Below are positions 4,345 through 20,096 of a stretch of 64,000 bases of DNA, piece after piece. Numbering within the stretch: the first letter of the stretch is position 1; every line of letters begins with the position of its first letter. The DNA is taken from positions 320,001 through 384,000 of the forward strand of contig CAVZRV010000027.1 in NCBI GenBank assembly GCA_963777605.1, in the 5' to 3' direction. Made by a program: the position numbers and the translations under genes. The DNA is from an uncultured Acidobacteriota bacterium. Lineage in GTDB: Bacteria; Acidobacteriota; UBA6911; RPQK01; JAPXNP01. Under the pieces are notes generated by a model. The model did not search any database. It was not told the origin of the DNA and saw only the letters and a program-made list of their open reading frames with translations.

Positions 4345-5568
4345 TTACCGGAACTTTTCCACAGTGTCGCCCCTTCCAGGGTAGGGTTGGAACCGCCGCT
4401 CGACTTCGTTGACACTCAGCCCGAAATCGTCCAGGCCGTGGTGGTGAACTCCATGCTTGTGCCGTGGATTTGACTCCAGGAAAGCGACAATCCTGTTCTC
4501 GAGAAAATCGGTCCATTCCAAGCCGAGCCTCCGGTAGACTTCACGCACAGCAGAGAGGGGGTCTGCAACCAGCTCAGAGTGGTGCACGTCGATAAACCGC
4601 TCAGGCCAGCGGCGGCGGGCCTCAAGGTTCCGCTCCATTTCCGCCGCCAGGAGATCGAGGTTGGCTCGGGCCATTCGCCCCACGTCAAGAGACTCCACGA
4701 CGGCCGAAAACACCGAGTAGAAGAGACTGTTCAGGCTGGAAACCACTTCGGCGGGATCCCGGTGCATCTGCACCAGGCAGGCATCCGGGATCGCGTGTAG
4801 GATAGCCGGTACCGACCCCGAGTGATTCGGTGCCTTGAGAAGAAGCCTGGCCGACGGCTCCTCCGACTGAAGAAAGCGCAATAGCGCCCCATACTCCAGG
4901 TAAGCCCGGAAGCGGTCCTGGGACGACAGCCAGTCCAGGTAACGGTAGACTGGGGCGACGACCCAAAGGCCGTGGCTGACGAAGGTGAAATTCAGGAGCC
5001 AGATGCACTCCTCCGGCAAATCCGCCCGCGAAACGTGCTTGCTGTCCAGATCGGGAGTCAGCCGGCGCCGCATCGCCAGCGCTTTCTCCAGAACACGCCG
5101 GCCGACTTCCGGCGACTCGCGTCGAATCGGGCGAAACAGTTGCCACATCGGGAGGGTCCGAAACCGGGGATCCATGGCCAGAAGCCGGTGCAGGAAGGTA
5201 GTCCCTGAGCGAGGTAGTCCAAGGATGATCACGGGACGATTGAGCGGCGTTTCGAAGCGTTCTGGAGACTGCTGCCGCGCCTCGACAAACAGGAGGCGAT
5301 TCTGCAGCAGCGTGACGACCATTCCCCGAATCCCCTTGCGTCCGATCGGGCTCAGCCGGGCGTCTGCCTCGAGTGAATCGAGAAAAACCTGTAAGCCTTC
5401 TGAAAACCACTTGTCGCCAAAATCAGTCAGCCCCGACCTGGATGCCGCTTCTTCAAACAGACGTCCCGCTTCGAAGCGAAAGCTCTTCCATCTTTCGACT
5501 CCAAGCCGGGTTCCAAAATGGTTAAAAGCCCTGTACGGCCAGGGAATCTGGGGGATGCTGGTCAACAT
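4345..5568 (-). CDS. Sulfotransferase family protein
   Basis: PAPS-binding IILGLPRSGTTFLH, LLKAPNH and HRDP motifs; start uncertain (ATG 5568 or up to 5616). Confidence 0.88.
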   Translation of the reverse strand: MLTSIPQIPWPYRAFNHFGTRLGVERWKSFRFEAGRLFEEAASRSGLTDFGDKWFSEGLQVFLDSLEADARLSPIGRKGIRGMVVTLLQNRLLFVEARQQSPERFETPLNRPVIILGLPRSGTTFLHRLLAMDPRFRTLPMWQLFRPIRRESPEVGRRVLEKALAMRRRLTPDLDSKHVSRADLPEECIWLLNFTFVSHGLWVVAPVYRYLDWLSSQDRFRAYLEYGALLRFLQSEEPSARLLLKAPNHSGSVPAILHAIPDACLVQMHRDPAEVVSSLNSLFYSVFSAVVESLDVGRMARANLDLLAAEMERNLEARRRWPERFIDVHHSELVADPLSAVREVYRRLGLEWTDFLENRIVAFLESNPRHKHGVHHHGLDDFGLSVNEVERRFQPYPGRGDTVEKFR

Positions 5569-5885
5569 GCCACGGAAACTCTGGACAGAGCTTAGCACGG
5601 CGGCTGAGGCCACCAAAAAAATCGTCTGGAACTTTCCTGGCTCAGATCTCGTCTAATGCAGTTGAGATCCCATTTGGATCTACTCCTCCCAACCCAACTG
5701 CAGCGTCGGCCTCCCCACCGGCGCTGCAGCTACCAATCCGAACCCGATTCCCCGGAAATTCGCATAAAGGGGGAAGATCCCGGCGTCGAATCGGTCACTC
5801 TCCTCTTCAGATCGCAACTCGGCCAAGATATGATGCTCGAGCGGCTGAAGCGGTTCCCGCCCGTTTCACCAGGAAGGAGTCCCTG

Positions 5886-8800
5886 ATGTTCCGCAAACCG
5901 GCGACCTGGATTGTCCTCATTCTAATTTCCACCTGCGGCCTCTTATTTGCCCTGCGATTTTTCTCACAGGCATTTCCGATCGTTTCGCTGGACCTGCGAA
6001 TGGACCGCACCGACGCGATTCAGAGGGCGTCGGAACTGGCCAAGGAACGCAGCATCGGGCCAGCCTCTTTTAAACAGGCCGCGTCTTTCGGGTCGGACAG
6101 CGCTGTTCAGACCTACGTAGAACTGGAGGCCGGAGGAGTTGATGCCTTTCGGAAGCTGATCGAGGGAGGGCTGTACTCCCCGTACCAATGGGAAGTGCGC
6201 CACTTCAAAGAGGGAGAGAAGCATGAGGCCAGTTTCTTCTTCACTCCCGAGGGTAAAAGCTACGGGTTCTCCGAATCTCTTCCAGAGGATGAACCCGGGG
6301 CAAGCCTGTCCACGGAGGAAGCCCGCAAGATTGCCGAGTCGTCCAGCGCCGCCTGGGGCGTTTCGCTCGACCAGTACAACCTGGTTGAGTGGCCGGCAGA
6401 CACCAAACCGGGAGGACGTACCGACCACACGTTCGTGTACCAGCGACCCGATCAGAAGCTGGGCGACGCGGAATACCGGCTCAGCCTGGTCGTCTCGGGC
6501 GATCGACTGACCGGCGTGCAGCACTTCATGAAGATACCCGAGGCCTTCAGCCGCAAGTACCAGGAGATGCGTTCTTCAAATGACACGATCGCTTTTGGTG
6601 CCACGGTGGCGATGGGAATCCTGTACATCATCGGTGGCTGTGTCATCGGACTCTTCTTCCTGCTCCGGCAACGTGCAGTGATCTGGCGCCCGGCCCTGAT
6701 GTGGGGCTGCATCATTGGTGGTCTCCAGTTCCTGGGCAGCGTCAACGAACTTCCTCTCCTTTGGATGGGCTACGACACAGCGCTCTCGGCCGGATCGTTT
6801 CTGGCCCGGCAACTGGTCATGGCAGCGGGAGGGGCCCTGGCCATGGGTGGCGTTCTGACCGTGACGTTCATGGCCGCCGAAGGCCTTACTCGCAAAGCAT
6901 TTCCCGAAGGCTTTCAATTCTGGCGGCTCTGGTCGCCGGGGGTCGCCAACTCGAAGCCGATTCTCGGCCGGACTCTGGCCGGATACCTTCTGGTTTCCGT
7001 CTTCTTCGCCTATGACGTCGCCCTGTACACCTTTTCAAACCGGGCCCTGGGCTGGTGGAGTCCCTCCGAAGCCCTTATCCATCCCGACACTCTCGCAACC
7101 TATTTTCCCTGGCTGAACTCGATCGCGACTTCACTTCAGGCGGGCTTCTGGGAGGAATGCCTGTTCCGGGCGGTTCCGCTGGCGGGTGCAGCCCTTCTCG
7201 GGAAGCGCTTTGGGAAGCGGGGACTCTGGATCGGGGGCGCCCTGATACTGGAAGCGGTGATCTTCGGCGCGGCCCACGCCAACTACCCGGCGCAACCAGC
7301 CTATGCCCGCCTGGTGGAACTGATCATTCCCGCTCTCGGTTTCGGTGGGATCTACCTCTTGTTCGGCCTTTTGCCGGGAATCATCCTTCACTTCACTTTT
7401 GACGTCGTCTGGTTCGCCCTGCCGATATTCGTCTCTACGTCCTCCGGTGTCTGGATCGACAAGGTGCTGGTTGTCGTCCTGACCTTGACTCCACTCTGGG
7501 TGGTTCTCTATTTCAGGACGCGCAGGGGACGCTGGGAGGAGCCTGGTCGCGACACCCATAACCAGGCCTGGGTCCCGGCCCCGCAAGCCGTTGAGGACGA
7601 AGAAGAGGTGCCTCTCGCGGAGTCTCGGCCGGCAACCCGGCTTCCCCGCTGGCTCATATACGGACTCGGGCTGGTTGGCCTGGTCTCCTGGGGAATGCTG
7701 TCCCGATTCGGTTCCGACGTTCCAACCATGAAGATCTTCCGAACCGAGGCCGTTCACATCGCCGACTCGACTCTGGAACAAAGAGGGATTCAGCTCGGGT
7801 CGGAGTGGACCAGGTTGAGTACGATTGACGTCCCGCTCAACGAGAACGATCTCTTTGTCTGGCAAGAGGGGGGGGCGGAAGCTTACCGGGAATTGATGGG
7901 GACCTACCTCGGGCCTCCTTACTGGAGGGTGCGCTATGTCCGATTCGAGGGTGATGTAGCCGATAGGGCGGAGGAGTACCAGGTCCACATCGACCCGTCC
8001 GGGAAGGTCTTCCGCGTACTTCACATCCTCCCGGAGGCCACAGAGGGCGCCCAACTGGATGAAGACCAGGCGAAAGAAATGGCCGACGAGACTCTGCAAG
8101 CCGAGTTCGGGATCAATCCGTCCAACGTGAAGCTCGTCGCCCGTGAGCCGACCCAGCAGCCGGACCGGCGTGACTGGTCTTTCACCTACTCCGACAGTGC
8201 CCACTATCCGCTCCAAAAGGGAGAAGCACGTATCTACATCCAGATTTCGGGCGACCAGGTCACCGATGCCTATCGTTTTGTGTTTGTTCCCGATGAATGG
8301 CTTCGGCAGGAACGGGCGGATCGCAGCACGCTGGACCTGATCCAAATGGTCTCCGGAGCGCTCATCGCAATCCTGGTCTTCGCGGGTGCGATTCTCGCAC
8401 TCGTGAACTGGACCCGGCATCGGTTCGTTCCCCGGTCGTTTCTGATCATCTTCGGAGCGCTCGTTCTCTTCTCGTGGCTCAGTCGCGCGAACGCGGTGCC
8501 CACGTTCCTGGCCGGATTCAGCACCGCCCAACCATTCAGCCTCCAACTGACCGTTCTTGTGCTGGCACTCATCCTCGGCTCCCTGTTCGTGGCTGCGGGG
8601 ACTGCCCTGGTGTACGGGCTGGTCAAATACTGGAAGGCCGTCGAAGGTCCGTCGGCGCGGGAGATCGGGGTAGGAATCGCGGCGGGACTCTTTGTGGCGG
8701 GCTTCGCTGCGGTTGCTTCCGCGACAGTCCCTCAACTGGCGCCCAAGTGGGGAGATCCGAGCCCCGCAGCCGATTTCTTCCCGTTCCTCGGCGTGCTCCT

Positions 8801-11907: not shown

Positions 11908-13869
11908 ATGAAAATCCTTCTCAGTTCGGTGTTTGGACCGTATGGTGTCGATGACGAGTATGGTCGCAAAGAGAACATCATGGAACTGTTCCACAATCAG
12001 GTCACGCGGGAGCAGGGACTTTTCTCGTTCCGGTTCCACCACAACAGTTTCGGCCTGAACCTGATCGCGGAGAACCTGACCGTCCCAACAACCGTTCTCG
12101 ACTTTCCGTCGCAGGAACGGTTCATCGAGGAAATCCGCAAAGGCTACGACTACATCGGCATCTCTTTCATCGTGCCGAATTTCGTGAAGGCCCGGCGAAT
12201 GGCGGAACTGATCCGTCAGCACGCACCGAACAGCAAGATCGTCCTCGGCGGCCATGGTGTCACTGTTCCGGACATCGAGAACCTGATTGAACACGACCAC
12301 ATCTGCAAGGGTGAAGGGGTGCGCTGGTTTCGGGCTCTGCTCGGAGAAGACCCCGAGAAGCCGATAAAGCATCCATCGTTGCCGTCTGCATTCGGACGCA
12401 GAGTTGCGGGGATTCCGTTGAAGAACATGGAGGCCGCAGTCCTGATCCCCGGAGTCGGTTGCCCCAACGCCTGCCGGTTCTGCTGCACCAGCCATTTCTT
12501 CGACAAGAGCTACACGCCATACCTGGAAACGGGTGACGACCTGTTCCGGGCCTGCCGCGACATCGAAGAGAACCTTGGCAGCACGGAGTTCTTCGTCATG
12601 GACGAGAACTTCCTCAAGCGCCCGGAGCGCGCGCGCCGGTTCATGCAACTCATGGAGGAGAACAACAAGTTCTACCGCTTCGGCATTTTCTCGTCAGCGG
12701 AGACGATTGCCGACGTCGGAGTCGAGTTCATGGCACGCCTCGGTGTCTACTTCGTCTGGCTGGGCGTCGAGTCGAAAAAGGAGATCTACAACAAGAACCG
12801 CGGCATCGATCACAAGGCGATGATTCAGGAACTGAGGGACCACGGTATCAGCGTGCTTGCGTCTGGGATCCTCTTCCTCGAGGAGCACGACAAGACGACG
12901 ATCTGGGACGATATCAAGTTCATTGTCGACCTGGGGTCCGACCTGGTTCAGTTCATGCAGCTTGGTCCCCTGCCCGGGACGAAGCTCTACCATGACTACG
13001 ACGAGAAGGGGCTGCTTCGAAAGGACCTGGCTTACGAAGAGTGGCACGGTCAGCACCAGATCTGGTTCCGGCATCCCAGCTTCACGGCAGAGGAATCGGA
13101 GGATTACCTGCGGCAGGCGTTCCGCTACGATTACGACAACCAGGGCTCTTCCCTGCTCCGGATGTGCCAGACCATTATCAGGGGATACAAGACACTCGGC
13201 CGTTACCAGGATCCCTACATGGTCAGGCGCAGAGAAATGCTCCGAAACATGGCCACTGAATATCGTCAGGTGATCAGGGTTCTCAAGAGGTACGCCCACA
13301 ATGACAGGGCTCGCGAACTGGCTGAAGCACTGAATGCCGAGTACGAGGCTCAACTGGGCCCGATGCCGCTCACGCAGAAGGCCATGTCGCTGATGGCCCT
13401 GCCGTACGCCGCCATGGAGATCCGGCGGATCCGTAACGGGAAATCGATGTACCAGCCCGCCACCCGGACGACTCATTACCGCATGTCGCTGGTTGACCTT
13501 GCGGCCCAGAGCATCAGGGGAAGGAACAGTTCGAACCTGCTCAGCACTGAAATCAAATGGGTCGAGTCCCCGGTCCACGTCGAAGTCGGTGGTGTCATGG
13601 ATGGAGTGAATGCGACCAGTCTGGCCCAGCGGCTCACCGCCTACCTGAGCCGTGAAGACGGGGACTTGACGATCAACCTGAACCTCCTGGTTCACATCGA
13701 AGACGGGGCGCTGAACGGGCTTCTGATGACGATCAGCAACTACCGCGACAGGGTGAAGCTGGTGTTCGAAGAGGGCGCCGAAGCAGTCAAAGAGTCCCTG
13801 GAGAACCTCCCGGCTGAGCTGCGGCTCCTCCTGGTAGACACCTCGCCAGGCACCCAGACCCCCGGCTAG
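11908..13869 (+). CDS. Cobalamin-binding radical SAM protein with a C-terminal STAS-like domain
   Basis: B12-binding-like YIGISF..KIVLGGHG; CxxxCxxC motif (CPNACRFC); MDENF, GVES and PLPGT motifs. Confidence 0.88.
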   Translation: MKILLSSVFGPYGVDDEYGRKENIMELFHNQVTREQGLFSFRFHHNSFGLNLIAENLTVPTTVLDFPSQERFIEEIRKGYDYIGISFIVPNFVKARRMAELIRQHAPNSKIVLGGHGVTVPDIENLIEHDHICKGEGVRWFRALLGEDPEKPIKHPSLPSAFGRRVAGIPLKNMEAAVLIPGVGCPNACRFCCTSHFFDKSYTPYLETGDDLFRACRDIEENLGSTEFFVMDENFLKRPERARRFMQLMEENNKFYRFGIFSSAETIADVGVEFMARLGVYFVWLGVESKKEIYNKNRGIDHKAMIQELRDHGISVLASGILFLEEHDKTTIWDDIKFIVDLGSDLVQFMQLGPLPGTKLYHDYDEKGLLRKDLAYEEWHGQHQIWFRHPSFTAEESEDYLRQAFRYDYDNQGSSLLRMCQTIIRGYKTLGRYQDPYMVRRREMLRNMATEYRQVIRVLKRYAHNDRARELAEALNAEYEAQLGPMPLTQKAMSLMALPYAAMEIRRIRNGKSMYQPATRTTHYRMSLVDLAAQSIRGRNSSNLLSTEIKWVESPVHVEVGGVMDGVNATSLAQRLTAYLSREDGDLTINLNLLVHIEDGALNGLLMTISNYRDRVKLVFEEGAEAVKESLENLPAELRLLLVDTSPGTQTPG

Positions 13870-13917
13870 ATCGATGGCAGGCACGTGTTGGGGAGCCTGA
13901 AAGTCATACCCTCTGTT

Positions 13918-13985
13918 GGACTTTTTATCGGGCGTTGATGGGACTTTTCCGTTGCGAGTCCTTTCGGGACTTCACGGACTTGACG
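13918..13985 (+). promoter_or_regulatory. GGACTT direct repeats overlapping a TTGACG -35-like box upstream of the HTH gene
   Basis: GGACTT at 13918, 13941, 13967 and 13976; 9-nt units gagtccttt/cgggacttc/acggacttg; TTGACG at 13980. Confidence 0.4.
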
Positions 13986-14063
13986 TCAAGCTGTTGCGAA
14001 ATAAAGACATCCCCTCAAGTGCCTGAAGCTGGAACGGGAACTGCTCTGAGAAGTGTTCCGATT

Positions 14064-14336
14064 ATGAACTTCTCAGCACCCCGATCTACGCAACAATCCG
14101 CCGGCGGGCCCAGTGGACCGACCGGCCTTCTCCAGATCTACCTGTCCAGTTCCCGAAAGGAGCGGACTCAGAGGTTCATCGACACCCGGGCCGCGGCTGA
14201 ACTCACCGGCCTGTCCCGCAGAACCATTCAGTGGTGGATCGAGACAGGCCTGATCGAGGCCGTCCGAATTGGGCGTCGCTACCAGATCGACCGGAGGTCT
14301 CTATTGACGCACCTCAGTGCAGTCTCGAGTTGCTGA
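14064..14336 (+). CDS. Small excisionase/MerR-like helix-turn-helix protein (HTH_17, BldC/Xis-like)
   Basis: IDTRAAAELTGLSRRTIQWWIETGLIEAVRIGRRYQIDRRSL. Confidence 0.85.
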   Translation: MNFSAPRSTQQSAGGPSGPTGLLQIYLSSSRKERTQRFIDTRAAAELTGLSRRTIQWWIETGLIEAVRIGRRYQIDRRSLLTHLSAVSSC

Positions 14337-14444
14337 GGTCGGAAGCACCCCTCCAGGCCGGAAGGGCTCCCCGATGCAGCAGTCACTCTCCTTCCGGGAA
14401 CGGTGTGGTAATTTCGTGCGCTGAAACCCTCCAAAGTTGAGGGG

Positions 14445-15170
14445 TCATTCAAATCGCGAGAGGTTTGCGGTAGCCCTGTCCAGAAGAAAGAGAGTGATCA
14501 TCGGCGAAGCGATCAAGACAATCGATGCACACAGCAGCGGAAGCAGAGTCGGGCCTGTTGATGATGACTGCGATCCGAGGAAGTTCACGGCTACCGCGAG
14601 GAGAATGCCACACCCGAATTGGATCCCTATCCAGAAGGCGTCGCGACCCGGACTCCTCTCGGGGCGTATCACCGCCCAGAACTGGAAGGCAATCAAGGGC
14701 ACGATGACGTAGAGGTTGGAGACAACCGCGAGGATACTGAACAGTCCCCTCCCCATCCAGGGCAATTCCGGAGCCGCTCCGGCCATCCCCAGTACCAGGG
14801 AAGGGCTCCCCGCTATCAACAGCACTGCCGACGACGAGATCCCCCACAGCGAATATCCGAGGATGATTTCGAAGGGATGTCGTGAGAGCAGGCGAAGCCA
14901 GGACAGACTCCCGCCGTCCCTGGCCTGAAGAGTACCGAGAAAGACCATCAGCAGGCTTGCGGGGAGCGCCGCCTCAAACCCGAGACTCTGGATCCGAGCC
15001 GAAATCAGGGGGTCTCCGAAATCAGGGATCAGCCCGGACAAAGGTATCCACAAAAGTTCGATGCTCGCAGCCACCAGGAGCGGGGTCCGCAACGACCTGA
15101 ACTGGACCCAGGCAATTCTCCTGGAACGCTCCCACCATCCAGTTCGAATGCCTCTCGGCAAGATGTCCAT
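14445..15170 (-). CDS. Multi-pass membrane protein, ABC-2 permease-like
   Basis: ~6 hydrophobic segments; LSWLRLLSRHPFEII parallels WNWLRLLSPHPRALV in the adjacent permease; 3-nt gap to it. Confidence 0.6.
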   Translation of the reverse strand: MDILPRGIRTGWWERSRRIAWVQFRSLRTPLLVAASIELLWIPLSGLIPDFGDPLISARIQSLGFEAALPASLLMVFLGTLQARDGGSLSWLRLLSRHPFEIILGYSLWGISSSAVLLIAGSPSLVLGMAGAAPELPWMGRGLFSILAVVSNLYVIVPLIAFQFWAVIRPERSPGRDAFWIGIQFGCGILLAVAVNFLGSQSSSTGPTLLPLLCASIVLIASPMITLFLLDRATANLSRFE

Positions 15171-15173
15171 GAC

Positions 15174-15851
15174 TCAGGCCCCGTCTCTCGTGAAGCGGGC
15201 TCCCAATTCGACGGCGAGAACGGCAAAGCCCAGGCCGGCTGCACCCGCCAGTATGACTGCCCCGAATGCCTCGCCGGGCGAAAGCGTCGGGATCTCCAAC
15301 GACAGGGCGCCATTTGCCTCTCCCAGCATCAGGGCGGCACTCGCAAACATCTCGATCGAGCAAAGCCCCAGGATCACCGCCAGGTAACCACGCCTCACCG
15401 CAACTACCAGGACAAAAACCACGCAGCCCAGGATCCACCCTGCTGCCGTCATGACAAACCAGACGGCAATGCGGAGCGAGGATCCGCCAATCGTGTCATG
15501 AACCAGCCAGCCCGGAAGAAGAGCCAGGCTGAAGAGCCCGTAGAAGAGGAATGAGACCAGCAGCTTTGCCGACACGAGGGCGCGAGGATGGGGCGACAGC
15601 AGCCGCAGCCAGTTCCAGGTCTTCCTTGTCTTTTCCCGGAAGATCACCAGTGTCGGGAAGACCACCCCCGCCAGGACACAAAGCGACGCCGTCACGGCCA
15701 GAAGGAGCGGATCGGCAGTGTCGCCAAAGAACACCAGGGCGAGGCATCCCCCGACCGCCAGCAAAGCCACGGGCAGTAGCGGGAGCCCCAGTTCGACCAG
15801 GTCCTTTCTCAATATCCTCAGCACCGATCGCACCATGGTCATCCCCACCAT
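15174..15851 (-). CDS. ABC-2 type transporter permease
   Basis: ILRKDLVEL start and REKTRKTWNWLRLLSP..LVSAKLL motif typical of ABC-2 permeases; abuts the ATPase gene. Confidence 0.8.
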   Translation of the reverse strand: MVGMTMVRSVLRILRKDLVELGLPLLPVALLAVGGCLALVFFGDTADPLLLAVTASLCVLAGVVFPTLVIFREKTRKTWNWLRLLSPHPRALVSAKLLVSFLFYGLFSLALLPGWLVHDTIGGSSLRIAVWFVMTAAGWILGCVVFVLVVAVRRGYLAVILGLCSIEMFASAALMLGEANGALSLEIPTLSPGEAFGAVILAGAAGLGFAVLAVELGARFTRDGA

Positions 15852-16538
15852 CTACTGGTCGGCCGGATAATGACTCCAGAACCAGTCGGCAATCCCGTCC
15901 TCACCCACTTCGGCGGCCGGAGTGTCCCCAACGATCCGCCCTCTCTTGATCAGCACATAACGGGAGGATAAAGGGGTCAGGTCCTCGAACACGTGACTCG
16001 ACACGATCACTGCGCAGGAGGAGCGCTCCCGATGGTCCGAGACAGCCGCTGAGAATTCCCGCTTGGCCACCGGGTCCAGTCCTGCTGTCGGCTCGTCCAG
16101 CAGAAGCAGAGGTGGGTCATGGGCCAGCGCGCAGATGAGTCCCAGCTTGATCTGGTTGCCCCGCGACAACTCCGCGTATTTCAAGCTGAGCCTCAGTTCG
16201 AGCCGTTGCGCAAGGGCGACGGCGTAACCACGGTCCCACCCGGAGTAGAAGCCGGCCACGAATTCGAGCACGTCATAGCCCTTCATCCAGTCGTAGATAT
16301 CGAGCCGATGCGGAAGATATCCCACCCTGCCGCCGCTTTCACCCAAACGACGTTTCAGTTCCCCGCCCGTCGGGCTCCGGAGTCCGGCCGCCATCTCCAG
16401 AAGCGTGGTCTTGCCGGCTCCATTTTCACCGAGTAACCCCACGACCTCGCCATCTCCAACCGACAGATTGAACGGACCGACACGGATACCGTTGGGGTAG
16501 GTCTTTTCCAGTTCAAGACACTTGAGAATGGTCGTCAT
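15852..16538 (-). CDS. ABC transporter ATP-binding protein
   Basis: Walker A GENGAGKTT, signature LSRGN, Walker B LLLLDEPTAGLDP, SSH switch. Confidence 0.95.
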   Translation of the reverse strand: MTTILKCLELEKTYPNGIRVGPFNLSVGDGEVVGLLGENGAGKTTLLEMAAGLRSPTGGELKRRLGESGGRVGYLPHRLDIYDWMKGYDVLEFVAGFYSGWDRGYAVALAQRLELRLSLKYAELSRGNQIKLGLICALAHDPPLLLLDEPTAGLDPVAKREFSAAVSDHRERSSCAVIVSSHVFEDLTPLSSRYVLIKRGRIVGDTPAAEVGEDGIADWFWSHYPADQ

Positions 16539-16550
16539 CCCAAATCCCTC

Positions 16551-17180
16551 TCAAAATCCGCCGATCCTTACGACTACCTCATACGCCAGGTAGGGACCGG
16601 CAACACAGACCACTGACCGCCGCCAGCGAATGTTCAGGACGGCAGAAGCTGCCCCTGAAGCGAGCACCAAGTACCAGATCTTTGCGGCGACATGAAAGAG
16701 CCCAACCGTCTGGAGGACCCAACTGTGCTCCATCGCGGCGGCAACCGCTCCGGGGTCGAGGGCTTGCCCGGAATCCAGCCCGTCGGGAGGATTCAATGCC
16801 AGCAGAACAAAGCCTGCAGCACCCGCCAGAACGAACGGAAGGTAGGCATACCCAATCAACTCGACCAGCTTCCGGAAACGGATTTCCGCATTCCAGAAGA
16901 GAATCGCCGCGGTACCGATGACCCCGGCAATCAGCGGCCACGTCAGTACGTACACAACCAGGAACAGGAGACTCTGCACCAACCCGAAGCGCTCGAGAAA
17001 CTCCTGCATAGCTTCCGGAAGATTTGACGAGAAGGCGCGTGAAACCAGGTTGACCGAACCGGAGGCCAGACCGCCTGCGACGACTACCAACGCCGCAGGA
17101 ATGGTCCACTCGAACGGGCGGGTGACTCGGGACCGAAAGAAGCCGTTCGGATCGATTAGAAAGGAGAGGGCGTCCGACAT
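16551..17180 (-). CDS. Yip1 family membrane protein
   Basis: GGAGGA RBS before ATG 17180; LIDPNGFF start, FRKLVELIGYAYLP motif, ~5 TM helices. Confidence 0.8.
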   Translation of the reverse strand: MSDALSFLIDPNGFFRSRVTRPFEWTIPAALVVVAGGLASGSVNLVSRAFSSNLPEAMQEFLERFGLVQSLLFLVVYVLTWPLIAGVIGTAAILFWNAEIRFRKLVELIGYAYLPFVLAGAAGFVLLALNPPDGLDSGQALDPGAVAAAMEHSWVLQTVGLFHVAAKIWYLVLASGAASAVLNIRWRRSVVCVAGPYLAYEVVVRIGGF

Positions 17181-17728
17181 AGTTCCTCCACGATGATCCC
17201 AATCGTGACTTCGGCTTCGATGAACGCGGCCAACACCGTCAACCCCATTGCCAAGCCGAAGGCCACCGGGAGAACCCTCAGGGCTCCAGGTTGAAAGAAC
17301 GCTCCGCCGCCAAGAAAGGTGCCGGTGAAACGGGGGCCGAGAAAGCCGATCCCCGCCGCCAGCCAGAGCCCGCCCAGTTCCATGGAATGCGGCGCCGAAG
17401 CCCAGAAGATTTGCAACGGTTCCAATCCACCCTGCCAGGCCGCGCCGGCCACCGCCCCAAAAACAAATCCAGACCCGGCCACCGTCATGAAAGTTGTAAT
17501 CCCAAAAGTAAAAAGCCCCAGAGCGGCAAGAAGCACCACCAGTGAGTTGACCTTGAGAATGGCCAAGAAAGAAGGGGCAATGATCAAGGGAAGAAGCGGC
17601 GAGGTGGTCGGGATCGAGTCCTTCGGGAAATGGGAGGTTATCAGGATTCCGCAAGAGCAAGCTGACATCCACAAGAGCAAAGCCCACAAGAATCCATTAC
17701 CCAAACTCCGATTAAGGACACACCTCAT
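17156..17728 (-). CDS. SpoIIM / DUF95 family membrane protein
   Basis: ILKVNSLV, APHSMELGGLWLAAGIG (PHG..E-type motif) and VLAAFIEAEVT motifs. Confidence 0.8.
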   Translation of the reverse strand: MRCVLNRSLGNGFLWALLLWMSACSCGILITSHFPKDSIPTTSPLLPLIIAPSFLAILKVNSLVVLLAALGLFTFGITTFMTVAGSGFVFGAVAGAAWQGGLEPLQIFWASAPHSMELGGLWLAAGIGFLGPRFTGTFLGGGAFFQPGALRVLPVAFGLAMGLTVLAAFIEAEVTIGIIVEELCRTPSPF

Positions 17729-17788
17729 TTCCGGCCCCCGCAACGGCACGGGTTTTCTCCGAAGCCGCCCGGAACTCCCTTCTGTCCA

Positions 17789-18220
17789 TCACCACTCACT
17801 GCAGGTCCCGTCTGAACTTGCCCCTGGCGTAGCCACGTACTTTCGGAGCCTGGTCTGTGTGTCACGAATCATGAAGTAGCAACCCATAATCACTCCAGCG
17901 GCAAACAGGTGTGCGAGCGCAAGTATTCCGAAGTAGCGATCGACATCATAGGTTGATCGAATCACCAGCCCTCCGAGACCGGTCAAGGTCACGGCAAACA
18001 GAACCACCAAGACAAGGACGGCGATTCTCCTCCCAAGGCTGATACATTTCGCGCCAGCAATGAAAGCGACTGAAAGGGTAAGAACGATGCCTGCGTCAGT
18101 AATGACGGTACCTGCGAACCAAGCCAGATCGTCAATGTTCCTCAAAACAAGGAGGTACACTTGGGCTACAAAGACTGTTGCGGCAATCGACAGTAACAAC
18201 ACTCCCCATTTCATAATCAC
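17789..18220 (-). CDS. 4-TM membrane protein, candidate immunity/accessory protein
   Basis: AAGGAG RBS; four hydrophobic helices; lies between the precursor and SpoIIM genes. Confidence 0.65.
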   Translation of the reverse strand: MIMKWGVLLLSIAATVFVAQVYLLVLRNIDDLAWFAGTVITDAGIVLTLSVAFIAGAKCISLGRRIAVLVLVVLFAVTLTGLGGLVIRSTYDVDRYFGILALAHLFAAGVIMGCYFMIRDTQTRLRKYVATPGASSDGTCSEW

Positions 18221-18321
18221 TTCTCCTTCATTCTCGCCCGAAGTAGGAGTGCAAAAACTCCGGACTCAAAAGAGCTCCGTGCGTATCAGCCTCAGCACTA
18301 GTCCATTCATTTGAGATCAGC

Positions 18322-18354
18322 GGACGCGGCAATTGGGGATGGACTACCGCGTCC
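18322..18354 (-). terminator. Stem-loop downstream of the precursor gene (partial terminator or mRNA-stabilising hairpin)
   Basis: ggacgcggcaat (18322-18333) and actaccgcgtcc (18343-18354) form an inverted repeat; no U-tract. Confidence 0.55.
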
Positions 18355-18388
18355 TGGTTGAAAAAGAACAAGATAGTGGACCGGTGAT

Positions 18389-18646
18389 CTAGACTGCGAC
18401 TGCAAACCCTGCAGCCCACCCGGCAGGAGTACACACCAAAGTGCCGGCTGCGATTCCCCATAGTGTCGAGTGCAGGGCACCGGTCGTGCCCAAGATCAAT
18501 CCCGCCTCGGCAGAACCTCTATCGGACCTGGCGCAAAGGTAGCCGATCCCCACCCACATTTTTCCATCCATGACTCCGACCTGGCCGAGCGCCAGGGTCG
18601 AGAAACAGGCCAGCAGCAGCACCGCCGCCATCAGTCTTCGCTTCAT
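18389..18646 (-). CDS. Putative circular (head-to-tail) bacteriocin-like precursor peptide, 85 aa
   Basis: AGGAGGAGG RBS; signal-like leader MKRRLMAAVLLLACFSTLALG; Gly/Ala-rich hydrophobic core ending PAGWAAGFAVAV; first gene of a SpoIIM-Yip1-ABC operon. Confidence 0.75.
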   Translation of the reverse strand: MKRRLMAAVLLLACFSTLALGQVGVMDGKMWVGIGYLCARSDRGSAEAGLILGTTGALHSTLWGIAAGTLVCTPAGWAAGFAVAV

Positions 18647-18844
18647 CTCGATCCTCCTCCTGAATCCGACCGGGAGAACCATTCATTCGCCTCTCCCGGC
18701 CCATCACCGGGCCTCTCCGGCCCGGCGGTTCGATCCCGAGGCCTCAGGGCTGTCTCAATCTTCGACGTCGGATCCGCGCCCGGCACCGACCGGGCAACGC
18801 CGTCCCGGTTACCCTATCCTCAGTCCTTTCAACTGTCCAGCGCG

Positions 18845-18871
18845 GAATGCGCCGATTGCGCCAACTGCGCC
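18845..18871. repeat. Three tandem 9-bp direct repeats (nnnTGCGCC) upstream of the precursor gene
   Basis: gaatgcgcc gattgcgcc aactgcgcc. Confidence 0.6.
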
Positions 18872-19373
18872 GCAATCGTTTCGAGGTGCCCGAAATCCGG
18901 TTCTGGGACCGGGCCTGGGTGGACCGTGTTGAGGAAGTCCGCTATCGCCACCCACTGTGACCTCACGTGTTGGCGATTGGCGGTTGCATCATCGAATCTG
19001 CGCGGTGGCGCACGGTTTCAGAACAAACCGGAAATCAAGAATCCTGAATTGAGACTGTTCTGGCTTTCCCTCCAGAAACGAGAAACCAGGAACCACAGGA
19101 GCTCATCCCAAATGAAGTCTCAAGCGATGCCGGGAGTGGGGTCGCCGTCGACCTCAGGTTGGAGTAGGAGTCATCGAATCGGAAGAGATTCGCTTTCTGT
19201 GCTCAGGGTCCACAGGAAGTGTGGAAAAGGCTGTGAAAAACCTGCGGCAGCTCAGTTGGACTCAGTGTCCGCTGCGGTTTGCACGATTCTAGTGCACCGC
19301 CCTCCAAAGGACACAATCCACCAAAAAAACGCAGAATTCAGTGTAAGATATGCAATGGTGGTATACTTCTTGC

Positions 19374-19473
19374 AGGCGGCCAAACAGGGAGACCCTCCTT
19401 TGAGGACCCCAACGCTCTCTCCTCCTTAAAGATCTCCCCTCGCGGCCGCCTTCGCTGAGCAGGGGATCTCAGC
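19374..19473. other. Structured intergenic element (candidate sRNA, REP-like element or terminator)
   Basis: Nested pairings 19374-81/19444-51, 19386-92/19433-40 and 19398-406/19423-31; second hairpin gctgag/ctcagc; TATACT at 19362. Confidence 0.4.
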
Positions 19474-19496
19474 AGGTCCCTCCGACCCAAATCCAG

Positions 19497-20096
19497 TCAT
19501 TGACGGCCAAACGGCATCAGGTAGACCGGTGTCTGACCTTCAGGGAGCCTCAGGACGCCTGCCGCATCTCCGGGACGAAAAGCTGCGATGACCACCGTCC
19601 CCAAGCCCAACGCTTCGGCTTGGAGGTGTACATTTTGCCCGGCGTGCCCTACCTCCATGTGCACGTAGTCTCTGGCCGCGTCACCGAACTTCGGCTCGCT
19701 TCGGGCATAACAGGCGGAAATCACCAGGACGGCTGCAGATTCGAGGATTGAGGTTTGGTTGAAGGTAGTGTCGAATAACGGTTTCAAGAGCTCCCCCCGG
19801 ACCCCGGGAGTCAACGAGTGGTTCGATCCGTCGTAAGAATACAGACCGGCCTCGAGCCCGGACACGTTTGCTGCGACCAAAGAGATTTCCAGTGGATAGC
19901 ACTCCATTGCCGACGGGGTGGTGCGCCACCCGTTCGGCCCGGTCACCCCGTAAGCGCTCCACAACAATTGGCCAACTCGTTCCAAGCCGATTGTTTCCGG
20001 GCTAAAAGTACGGGTAGACCGTCTCCGAGACAGCGCTTCTTCGACAGTAACAGTCCCTCTTTGCGAGGGTTCAGGCAGAGTGATCATTACTTTCAA
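19497..20096 (-). CDS. SagB/ThcOx-type nitroreductase family protein
   Basis: LSRRRSTRTF, RTTPSA..YPLE and EVGHAGQNVHLQAEALGLGTV motifs. Confidence 0.9.
   Translation of the reverse strand: MKVMITLPEPSQRGTVTVEEALSRRRSTRTFSPETIGLERVGQLLWSAYGVTGPNGWRTTPSAMECYPLEISLVAANVSGLEAGLYSYDGSNHSLTPGVRGELLKPLFDTTFNQTSILESAAVLVISACYARSEPKFGDAARDYVHMEVGHAGQNVHLQAEALGLGTVVIAAFRPGDAAGVLRLPEGQTPVYLMPFGRQ

Follow-up and report, generated by a model that had tools for sequence, protein, structure and literature searches.

We describe here a gene for a small peptide, and the genes that follow it, from an uncultured Acidobacteriota bacterium. The gene lies on the minus strand of a 64,000-nucleotide (nt) stretch of DNA (contig CAVZRV010000027.1, positions 320,001 to 384,000), which is called the window below. 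Its product of 85 amino acids (aa) founds a family of exported, very hydrophobic small peptides that is unannotated and previously undescribed. Wherever a member was located in a genome, a gene for a membrane protein of the SpoIIM (DUF95) type follows on the same strand. We hold, with moderate confidence, that the product is the precursor of a new SpoIIM-dependent, probably head-to-tail cyclized, bacteriocin-like peptide, the ring being of 55-56 aa rather than 64. It is the gene context and the point where conservation begins that make us favor a SpoIIM-dependent, possibly cyclized peptide of this length.

How circular bacteriocins are cut from their precursors and closed is still unknown, according to the available portions of two articles (PMC6131525, PMC10028692), and their producers are placed 'mainly' in Firmicutes (PMC8659200). 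In the available text of one survey, 6,925 of the 6,928 predicted precursors came from Firmicutes (Bacillota), two from Actinobacteria and one from Thermotogae (PMC8534725). Full-text searches of an open-access library listed no title or abstract opening that describes a SpoIIM-linked circular-bacteriocin system in Bacteroidota or Acidobacteriota. The present peptide-SpoIIM-Yip1 cassette is conserved outside Bacillota. Its peptide has a Sec-type leader and a core of unrelated sequence, and in many cases no ATPase gene adjoins it. Should the ring be real, it would widen the circular bacteriocin class to Gram-negative-type bacteria, and the three-gene core (peptide, SpoIIM and Yip1-like, with an ATPase adjoining in two lineages only) would be the smallest natural system for identifying the cyclase; harmless cultured carriers exist (Cyclobacterium plantarum, C. 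lianum, C. jeungdonense and Echinicola salinicaeni). If the peptide is linear, its family would still be new and tied obligately to SpoIIM, and it would be a caution against taking SpoIIM as proof of cyclization.

The precursor gene and its family

The gene and the parts of its product are as follows.

18389..18646, minus strand: precursor gene, 85 aa plus stop codon (ATG at 18646, stop codon 18389-18391; family membership by HMMER and profile search)
18647..18669, minus strand: ribosome-binding region with a AGGAGGAGG Shine-Dalgarno sequence 6 nt before the ATG (read from the sequence)
18584..18646, minus strand: residues 1-21, Sec-like leader (MKRR, a hydrophobic stretch, A-L-G; n/h/c heuristic, cleavage predicted)
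18560..18583, minus strand: residues 22-29, variable non-conserved linker, a putative propeptide (2-20 aa across the family)
18392..18559, minus strand: residues 30-85, conserved Gly/Ala-rich core (W31, Y36, K40, E47 and H/D/E59 conserved; Gly at every fourth residue from 64 to 84)

The initial annotation of this DNA had singled out the 85-aa open reading frame (ORF), which lies on the minus strand, and the translation agrees with it letter for letter. The longest alternative ORF has 97 aa (start at 18682). Because it would contain the AGGAGGAGG site and because homologues begin with MKK or MKR, the methionine at 18646 is the likely start, which gives the 85-aa form.

The 85-aa ORF is a real gene, beyond what chance would produce, because an exhaustive HMMER search of 1.84 billion representative proteins (E<=1e-3, no length filter) found 12 matching proteins, all of 78-109 aa, because a profile built on them drew in 64 protein clusters at E<=1e-3, all 'hypothetical', and because the codon changes in the core are synonymous only. 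A chance or miscalled ORF, for which only the small size and the low-complexity composition would speak, has a negligible probability. It is refuted by the 64 clusters, by the synteny with SpoIIM at 17/17 loci in two phyla and by the codon pattern in six Cyclobacterium loci (both described below), and the strong ribosome-binding site also stands against it.

None of the 64 clusters carries a Pfam domain, and no Pfam or NCBIfam model covers the family. A word-index protein search with the single peptide as query returned only the peptide itself. The organism names attached to the clusters are Prevotella salivae and Elizabethkingia meningoseptica only. A scan with one genome per species gave 10 loci, in Cyclobacterium, Echinicola, Anditalea and metagenome-assembled genomes of Cyclobacteriaceae and Prevotellaceae, a sample biased by its search pattern, which came from a 17-row alignment favoring Bacteroidota. 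In the window's own order, three of the 75 other genomes (G005, G004 and G018) have a homologue, making 4/76 with the window genome, and a 301-genome sample of the phylum has five carriers, the window genome counted. In keeping with Acidobacteriota as that phylum, the nearest named relatives of the ThiC protein belong to metagenome-assembled genomes of Acidobacteriota and are 78-79% identical. Such a patchy distribution (5/301), together with a copy in G004 disrupted by an insertion sequence (IS), fits an accessory trait. The family alignment comprises 54 of 73 sequences; 19 were left out as near-duplicates, for N-terminal extensions or truncations, or for apparent frameshifts (P0007, 13, 16, 17, 28, 30, 37, 39, 41, 44-47, 52, 64, 65 and 68-70).

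The aligned precursors share a three-part architecture. A leader of Sec-type layout is found in 49/54 by a home-made rule, distinct from SignalP, under which a leader must have one or more Lys or Arg, a run of 10 hydrophobic residues and, at -3 and -1, small residues. Under this rule the layout of n-, h- and c-regions with an A-L-G site, as read earlier in the window peptide, is plausible, whereas the cleavage itself stands as a prediction only. The leader is followed by a linker of 2-20 aa (most commonly 13) of unconserved sequence, and the two together span 23-38 aa; no column is conserved before residue 30. The core opens with a hydrophobic residue in 54/54, and the second residue is Trp in 41, Tyr in six, Ile in four and Phe in three. 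With the Trp position taken as the first, it has 54 aa in 39 members, 55 in nine, 50 in five and 56 in one, and its last residue is hydrophobic in all 54 (Leu 40, Ala 5, Val 4, Met 4, Phe 1). A variable leader and linker ahead of a core of fixed length, with hydrophobic residues at -1 and at the end in 54/54 and no follower peptide, fit the anatomy of a cyclized bacteriocin-like peptide. Other conserved columns are Y36 (51 of 54), K/R40 (41), E47 (40) and D/H/E59 (50), and Gly occupies positions 56, 64, 68, 72, 76, 80 and 84 in 40-51 sequences per column.

The selection acting on the core is seen most directly in Cyclobacterium. In six loci (L026, L028-L032) of different species or bins, the 55-aa core is identical while the leaders differ. 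Over the 55 core codons there are 102 synonymous and no non-synonymous pairwise differences, and over the 32 leader and linker codons of the same loci 37 synonymous and 49 non-synonymous, all summed over 15 non-independent pairs. The core is under strong purifying selection.

These features bear on where a ring would begin and end. The initial annotation had offered two options, a ring of all 64 residues left after signal-peptidase cleavage, or further trimming to M30 or W31. Alignment of the homologues shows conservation starting at M30/W31, in line with the latter. The 64-aa ring is unlikely, because residues 22-29 lie in the non-conserved linker, and was rejected since that linker varies in length from 2 to 20 aa. 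The hydrophobic C-terminus without a follower peptide, also remarked on before, holds for the family: 69/73 sequences end flush at the same hydrophobic C-terminus. Of the four exceptions, P0041, P0064 and P0065 diverge in the manner of a frameshift or read-through, and P0069 stops in mid-core. Joining L85 to W31 would place G33 (Gly in 45/54) four residues after G84 and so continue the Gly ladder, which closure on M30 would not do; we give this almost no weight. The calculated average masses for the window peptide are 6364.3 Da for linear Q22-V85, 5549.4 Da (linear) and 5531.3 Da (cyclic) for M30-V85, and 5418.2 Da (linear) and 5400.2 Da (cyclic) for W31-V85, each less 2.0 Da with a C38-C72 disulfide.

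The Cys residues of the window peptide are C38 and C72 in the core, both as first read, and a third, C14, in the leader. A disulfide brace between the core pair was rejected as a feature of the family. Only 7/54 members have at least two Cys in the core; the C38 column has Cys in 3/54 and the C72 column in 1/54, the window peptide itself, where C72 replaces a Gly conserved in 47/54. Circular bacteriocins are described as lacking disulfides in the available text of a review (PMC6131525). A disulfide is likewise no trait of the family as a whole, to which the C38/C72 pair of the window, if oxidized, would be the exception. A lipoprotein was rejected as well: the strict lipobox [LVI][ASTVI][GAS]C is found in 1/54 leaders, and a relaxed form (G, A or S before Cys) in 7/54. 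A Cys lies within the hydrophobic stretch of the leader in 45/54, though the strict lipobox occurs in one.

Constant linkage to a SpoIIM-like protein

At 17/17 loci that hold a family member, a gene of one SpoIIM subfamily lies just downstream on the same strand, in the window's lineage with one small membrane-protein gene in between. The loci are the window, G005, G018, G004 (where the gene is split), 10 in Bacteroidota and three in further genomes of the window's phylum. The profile behind this count was itself made from seven of the 17 SpoIIM sequences, and many of the loci are close kin, so that the count amounts to some 6-7 independent lineages in two phyla. All six neighbors tested against PF01944 scored above its gathering cut-off (E 8e-12 to 7e-17). 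The SpoIIM/DUF95 protein by which circular bacteriocin clusters are recognized is thus present at 17/17 loci. Conversely, among the 76 genomes of the order, matches to the subfamily at E<1e-20 were confined to the four peptide-bearing genomes.

The subfamily also leads to a gene annotated as a circular bacteriocin. A tblastn search of 72,556 plasmid records with a Cyclobacterium SpoIIM gave only two matches, both to Clostridium perfringens plasmids. In pCN3842etx (L035), the one whose gene context was examined, the SpoIIM gene adjoins a gene annotated 'circular bacteriocin, circularin A/uberolysin family' and a gene for an ATPase of the ATP-binding cassette (ABC) type. The 172-aa plasmid SpoIIM is homologous to the peptide-linked subfamily over its full length (33% identity and E 8e-7 by tblastn; hhalign probability 98.5%, E 2.5e-15 over 157 columns against the subfamily profile). 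The motifs NN, FSFG, NG, PH..E and AA..E are common to both, and the invariant shared residues are N68, P120-H121, E124, A175 and E178 in the numbering of the window protein. The plasmid cluster differs in having no Yip1 gene and a precursor unrelated by sequence to the window peptide (hhalign probability 4%).

In the window itself, seven genes of the minus strand follow one another in the same direction, spaced by -28 to 168 nt. They make up an operon-like row headed by the peptide gene and continued by SpoIIM/DUF95-like, Yip1 and ABC transporter genes among others, which supports the circular-bacteriocin reading of the initial annotation. The six genes after that of the peptide are:

17789..18220, minus strand: 143-aa multi-pass membrane protein of no known family (membrane character by eye; G018 has a weak match in the corresponding place, BLASTP E 3e-4)
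17156..17749, minus strand: SpoIIM/DUF95-like membrane protein, 197 aa (PF01944 E 4.2e-5, 24.0 bits, under the 26.9-bit cut-off)
16551..17183, minus strand: Yip1-domain membrane protein, ~210 aa, internal start MSDALSF, overlapping the SpoIIM stop (PF04893 E 3.2e-12, 47 bits, above cut-off)
15852..16538, minus strand: ABC transporter ATP-binding protein, 228 aa (PF00005 E 7.7e-20)
15174..15851, minus strand: ABC-2-type permease-like membrane protein, 225 aa, abutting the ATPase gene (PF12730 E 3.3e-5, below cut-off)
14445..15170, minus strand: second membrane protein, 241 aa, probably the permease partner, starting 3 nt after the 225-aa gene (no family assigned)

The 143-aa protein is a possible immunity or accessory protein. 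The SpoIIM-like protein fits the subfamily profile and is 29% identical (E 1e-9) to its G005 orthologue, which passes the PF01944 cut-off. The Yip1 protein matches the YknW family weakly (E 5e-4) and has an orthologue in G005 (E 1e-8). ATPases for lantibiotic protection and for the export of phenol-soluble modulins (PSM) are among the NCBIfam matches of the ATPase, none of which reaches its cut-off.

A Yip1-like gene follows SpoIIM at every locus inspected for one, and the rest of the row varies with lineage. In G005 and G018 the order is peptide, a ~130-aa membrane protein, SpoIIM and a 206-208-aa membrane protein homologous to the window Yip1 protein (E 1e-8). In G004 (L004/L024, C1 ~4680558-4682711) the row starts in the same way, but a DDE transposase gene of IS type has inserted into the SpoIIM gene and cut it in two, so that the cassette is probably no longer functional. 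In three genomes from a different family of the phylum (L052-L054), the row runs from peptide to SpoIIM, Yip-like protein and ABC ATPase. An ABC transporter adjoins the cassette only in the window and one other lineage.

At the seven Bacteroidota loci that were resolved at the ORF level, the order is zinc-ribbon protein, peptide, SpoIIM and a ~157-214-aa membrane protein, the last with a weak Yip1 match in Echinicola (E 2e-5). The zinc-ribbon-like protein, directly upstream of the peptide gene in 7/7 (L026-L034), has 104-117 aa with two CxxC pairs and, by eye, two hydrophobic segments after them; the window's lineage has instead a 130-143-aa membrane protein 3' of the peptide. Five Cyclobacterium loci at the ORF level have a gene for an XRE-type helix-turn-helix (HTH) protein upstream and a 217-aa gene nearby that looks RadC-like. 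The two genes hint at a mobile island.

Known systems and competing explanations

SpoIIM has been called 'class-defining' for circular bacteriocin clusters (PMC13289728), and for two surveys, in their available portions, a cluster must encode a precursor, a DUF95/SpoIIM protein and either an ATP-binding or a transporter protein (PMC8534725, PMC8659200). The closest likeness in gene content is to the cerecyclin (cyc) cluster of Bacillus cereus. In the survey text at hand it consists of a precursor, a membrane protein, DUF95, an ATPase, an immunity protein, a YIP1 protein, an ABC transporter and a regulator (PMC8534725). The precursor, the unnamed membrane protein, DUF95, the YIP1-family protein and the ABC transporter are all matched in the window row. 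Cerecyclin itself, going by the same text, has a 4-residue leader (cleavage N4-V5, ring V5-W75) and, besides the shared parts, a separate ATP-binding protein (CycD), an immunity protein of 58 aa and a regulator, none of which was identified in the window row.

In peptide anatomy, the family resembles the group ii circular bacteriocins (gassericin A, acidocin B, butyrivibriocin AR10 and plantaricyclin A), which also have a long leader, a weakly charged hydrophobic core and no follower. Known precursors in general are described, in the part of the review available, as having leaders of 2-48 aa, cores of 58-70 aa and no C-terminal follower, and those of group ii leaders of 22-33 aa, cores of 58 aa, charges of -2 to +2 and hydropathicity (GRAVY) values of 0.997-1.057 (PMC6131525). 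The background of long leaders and weakly charged 58-aa cores that the initial annotation had drawn on agrees with these figures. The likeness it saw in core size, near-zero charge and hydrophobicity also holds. The present cores are of 55-56 aa against 58, with a median GRAVY of 1.03 against about 1.0 and net charges of -4 to +3. The window product from Q22 to V85 (64 aa) has three Lys/Arg and three Asp/Glu, as counted earlier, a GRAVY of 0.73 and a pI of 6.7. A SpoIIM/DUF95 protein and an ABC ATPase in the cluster are common to group ii, as far as its published descriptions were available, and to the window row. Differences are the Sec-type leader followed by a variable linker, the regular Gly-x3-Gly ladder, the three helices predicted by AlphaFold2 (AF2), and the hosts, which are Bacteroidota and the window's phylum, against Bacillota for group ii. 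Membership of the gassericin A family was not borne out by sequence, with no match to PF12173 or to sequences of the PDB.

Several results weigh against a circular bacteriocin. In the available text of the review, the leaders of known members have no motif in common and are unlikely to serve as signals for processing or secretion (PMC6131525); the leader found here has a Sec-type layout. Export by Sec would also leave a dedicated exporter unnecessary. The conserved core has 50-56 aa (51-57 with the residue before Trp), slightly short of the published 58-70, though the 23-38 aa ahead of it and the missing follower agree with known precursors. No ATPase was seen beside the cassette within the flanks read in G005, G018 and the Bacteroidota loci, which counts against the reading because an ATP-binding protein is obligatory in the surveys, in the portions available. 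The window peptide matched no circular-bacteriocin family of Pfam or NCBIfam. Neither did 15 members match PF12173, PF09221 or PF16942 at E<=10, nor was there a circular-bacteriocin model among the 25 listed of 30 NCBIfam families found with the 54 members. A profile search of PDB sequences gave no circular bacteriocin and one chance match (E 3.3), and the C. perfringens circular precursor (PF09221-type) aligned with the 4% probability given above. The N-terminus of the glycine-zipper lipoprotein YiaD is weakly matched by 19/54 members, the best at E 0.005, below cut-offs. The AF2 models, of modest confidence (predicted local distance difference test, pLDDT, of 68 when the full precursor was modeled from 54 rows and of 69 when only the core was, from 12 rows), have three helices (27-40, 46-71 and 74-84) against the 4-5-helix bundle of solved circular bacteriocins, and no circular bacteriocin is among the best 50 VIA-align matches listed.

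Other comparisons were less telling. Foldseek found nothing in the PDB at E<=0.001 with either the full or the core-only model, and the best matches of the wide VIA-align search (Z 5.1, rmsd 4.0, 56 aligned; Z 4.8, rmsd 2.5, 45 aligned) are generic helical arrangements. A language-model feature search placed circular-bacteriocin clusters (PF12173, PF09221 and PF16942) among the nearest at 0.77-0.81, under the 0.9 mark, which is a weak lead. The whole protein and the core alone scored alike, and glycine-zipper and class II bacteriocin (BlpM 0.76) clusters were about equal. For a complex of the SpoIIM-like protein with residues 22-85 the prediction reached 0.01, where the mark is 0.32, and was counted neither way.

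The peptide could instead be linear, a Sec-exported, membrane-active, bacteriocin-like product that is never cyclized, with the SpoIIM-like, Yip1 and ABC proteins serving as self-immunity or expelling machinery. In Bacillus subtilis the Yip1-family protein YknW, with YknXYZ, protects the cell from the SDP toxin. The weak YknW match of the window Yip1 protein would be in keeping with such a role, as would the resemblance of the ATPase to lantibiotic-protection and PSM export ATPases, the Sec-type layout of the leaders, the weak class II bacteriocin matches (PF10439 in 2/15 members at E 0.68, besides BlpM) and the patchy distribution. We consider a linear toxin rather unlikely all the same. The core starts 2-20 residues past the predicted signal-peptidase site, after an unconserved linker, which points to a further N-terminal cut, and a C-terminus that is fixed, flush and always hydrophobic would be left unexplained. 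Moreover, with SpoIIM at every locus and an ABC transporter in two lineages only, the constant partner is the protein of circular-bacteriocin production, not the expelling pump.

That the peptide is no toxin at all, but a small glycine-zipper membrane or periplasmic protein that serves an envelope function, as structural subunit or cofactor of a complex of SpoIIM and Yip1, is in our judgment unlikely. The Gly ladder at residues 64-84 is what such a protein would show, the central AF2 helix of 26 residues is of membrane-spanning length, and besides the YiaD matches there are weak ones to Gly-zipper_YMGG (3/15 members, E 0.074). Both Gly-zipper_YMGG proteins and the YiaD-family lipoprotein N-terminus have, as here, a signal peptide followed by a Gly-x3-Gly ladder. 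The present family, however, is without a lipobox (strict pattern) and without an OmpA-like domain, and we know of no SpoIIM linkage for glycine-zipper envelope proteins. An envelope function also sits poorly with a family so rare and patchy (4/76 in the order), with a copy tolerated beside an IS-broken SpoIIM gene, with conserved charged or polar residues (K40, E47, D/H/E59) inside the supposed membrane helices, and with ABC-2 exporter genes attached in two lineages.

For the cyclized, SpoIIM-dependent product that we favor, the steps might run as follows. The Sec-type leader (residues 1-21) would direct insertion of the pre-pro-peptide into the inner membrane, or its passage across, and be cut off after A-L-G21, and the short variable linker (residues 22-29) would be removed next. 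The core would then be closed to a ring of 55-56 aa by joining V85 to M30 or W31. The SpoIIM-like, Yip1 and 143-aa membrane proteins may carry out or assist the trimming and closure, and the ABC ATPase with the two permease-like proteins may expel the peptide, presumably antibacterial, and protect the producer. Going by the AF2 model, closure would merge the two short terminal helices into one of ~21 residues lying against the 26-residue central helix, so that the ring would be a helical hairpin, not a saposin-like bundle; this is purely conjectural. More tentatively, the family may represent a new class of head-to-tail cyclized peptides in two-membrane bacteria, in which Sec export and signal-peptidase cleavage are separate from ring closure and the SpoIIM-Yip1 pair is the trimming and cyclizing machinery at the outer face of the inner membrane. 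The hosts of this class would be Bacteroidota, including Prevotella and Cyclobacterium, and Acidobacteriota, the window's phylum.

Cyclic pilins offer a parallel. In TrbC (RP4) and TrhA (R27) the signal peptide is removed before cyclization. Both are small, helical, membrane-associated head-to-tail rings of Gram-negative bacteria (PMC12037004) and, by analogy, backbone cyclization in a two-membrane envelope has a precedent in them. They need, however, the removal of a C-terminal follower of 5 or 27 residues by the signal-peptidase homologue TraF or TrhF, according to the available text of that article, whereas in the window the peptide has no follower and the locus lacks both a peptidase of this kind and a type IV secretion context. 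Cyclization of the T-pilin is disputed, according to that text (PMC12037004).

Surroundings of the row and a second related cluster

Some 800 bp (18683-19496) separate the peptide gene from a nitroreductase gene (19497-20096, minus strand) and have no convincing ORF on the strand of the cluster. The GC content is 0.53-0.55 over 17500-18500 and 19000-19500 against ~0.60 around. The gap could have a regulatory role, or it could point to acquisition. Scanning 13800-19600 gave no promoter-like sites, with no sigma-70-like promoter found, and six terminator-like sites where 6.8 are expected. Past the far end of the cluster, on the plus strand, lie genes for a B12-binding radical-SAM protein of 653 aa (11908-13869) and an HTH_17/MerR-type (excisionase-like) DNA-binding protein (13935-14336); the Pfam scan of window proteins gave no evidence linking either to the peptide.

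A second, related cluster is present in the same genome on contig C10 (L048; G000:C10:293000-305000, ~4874-8301, plus strand). Its peptide has 73 aa, with a GTG start after AGGAGG, a Sec-like leader, a core of ~45 aa opening with Trp-Gly-Tyr, and a Cys pair spaced C-x11-C. It is followed by genes for a Yip-like 213-aa protein, a SpoIIM-like protein (subfamily profile E 7.7e-12, Pfam E 1.3e-4), a 166-aa CxxC protein, an ABC ATPase and an ABC-2 permease. The CxxC protein has no Pfam match; our guess is a thiol-oxidoreductase. G061 (L049) has the same layout, its peptide having C-x10-C, so the Cys pair is conserved in both copies of this type.

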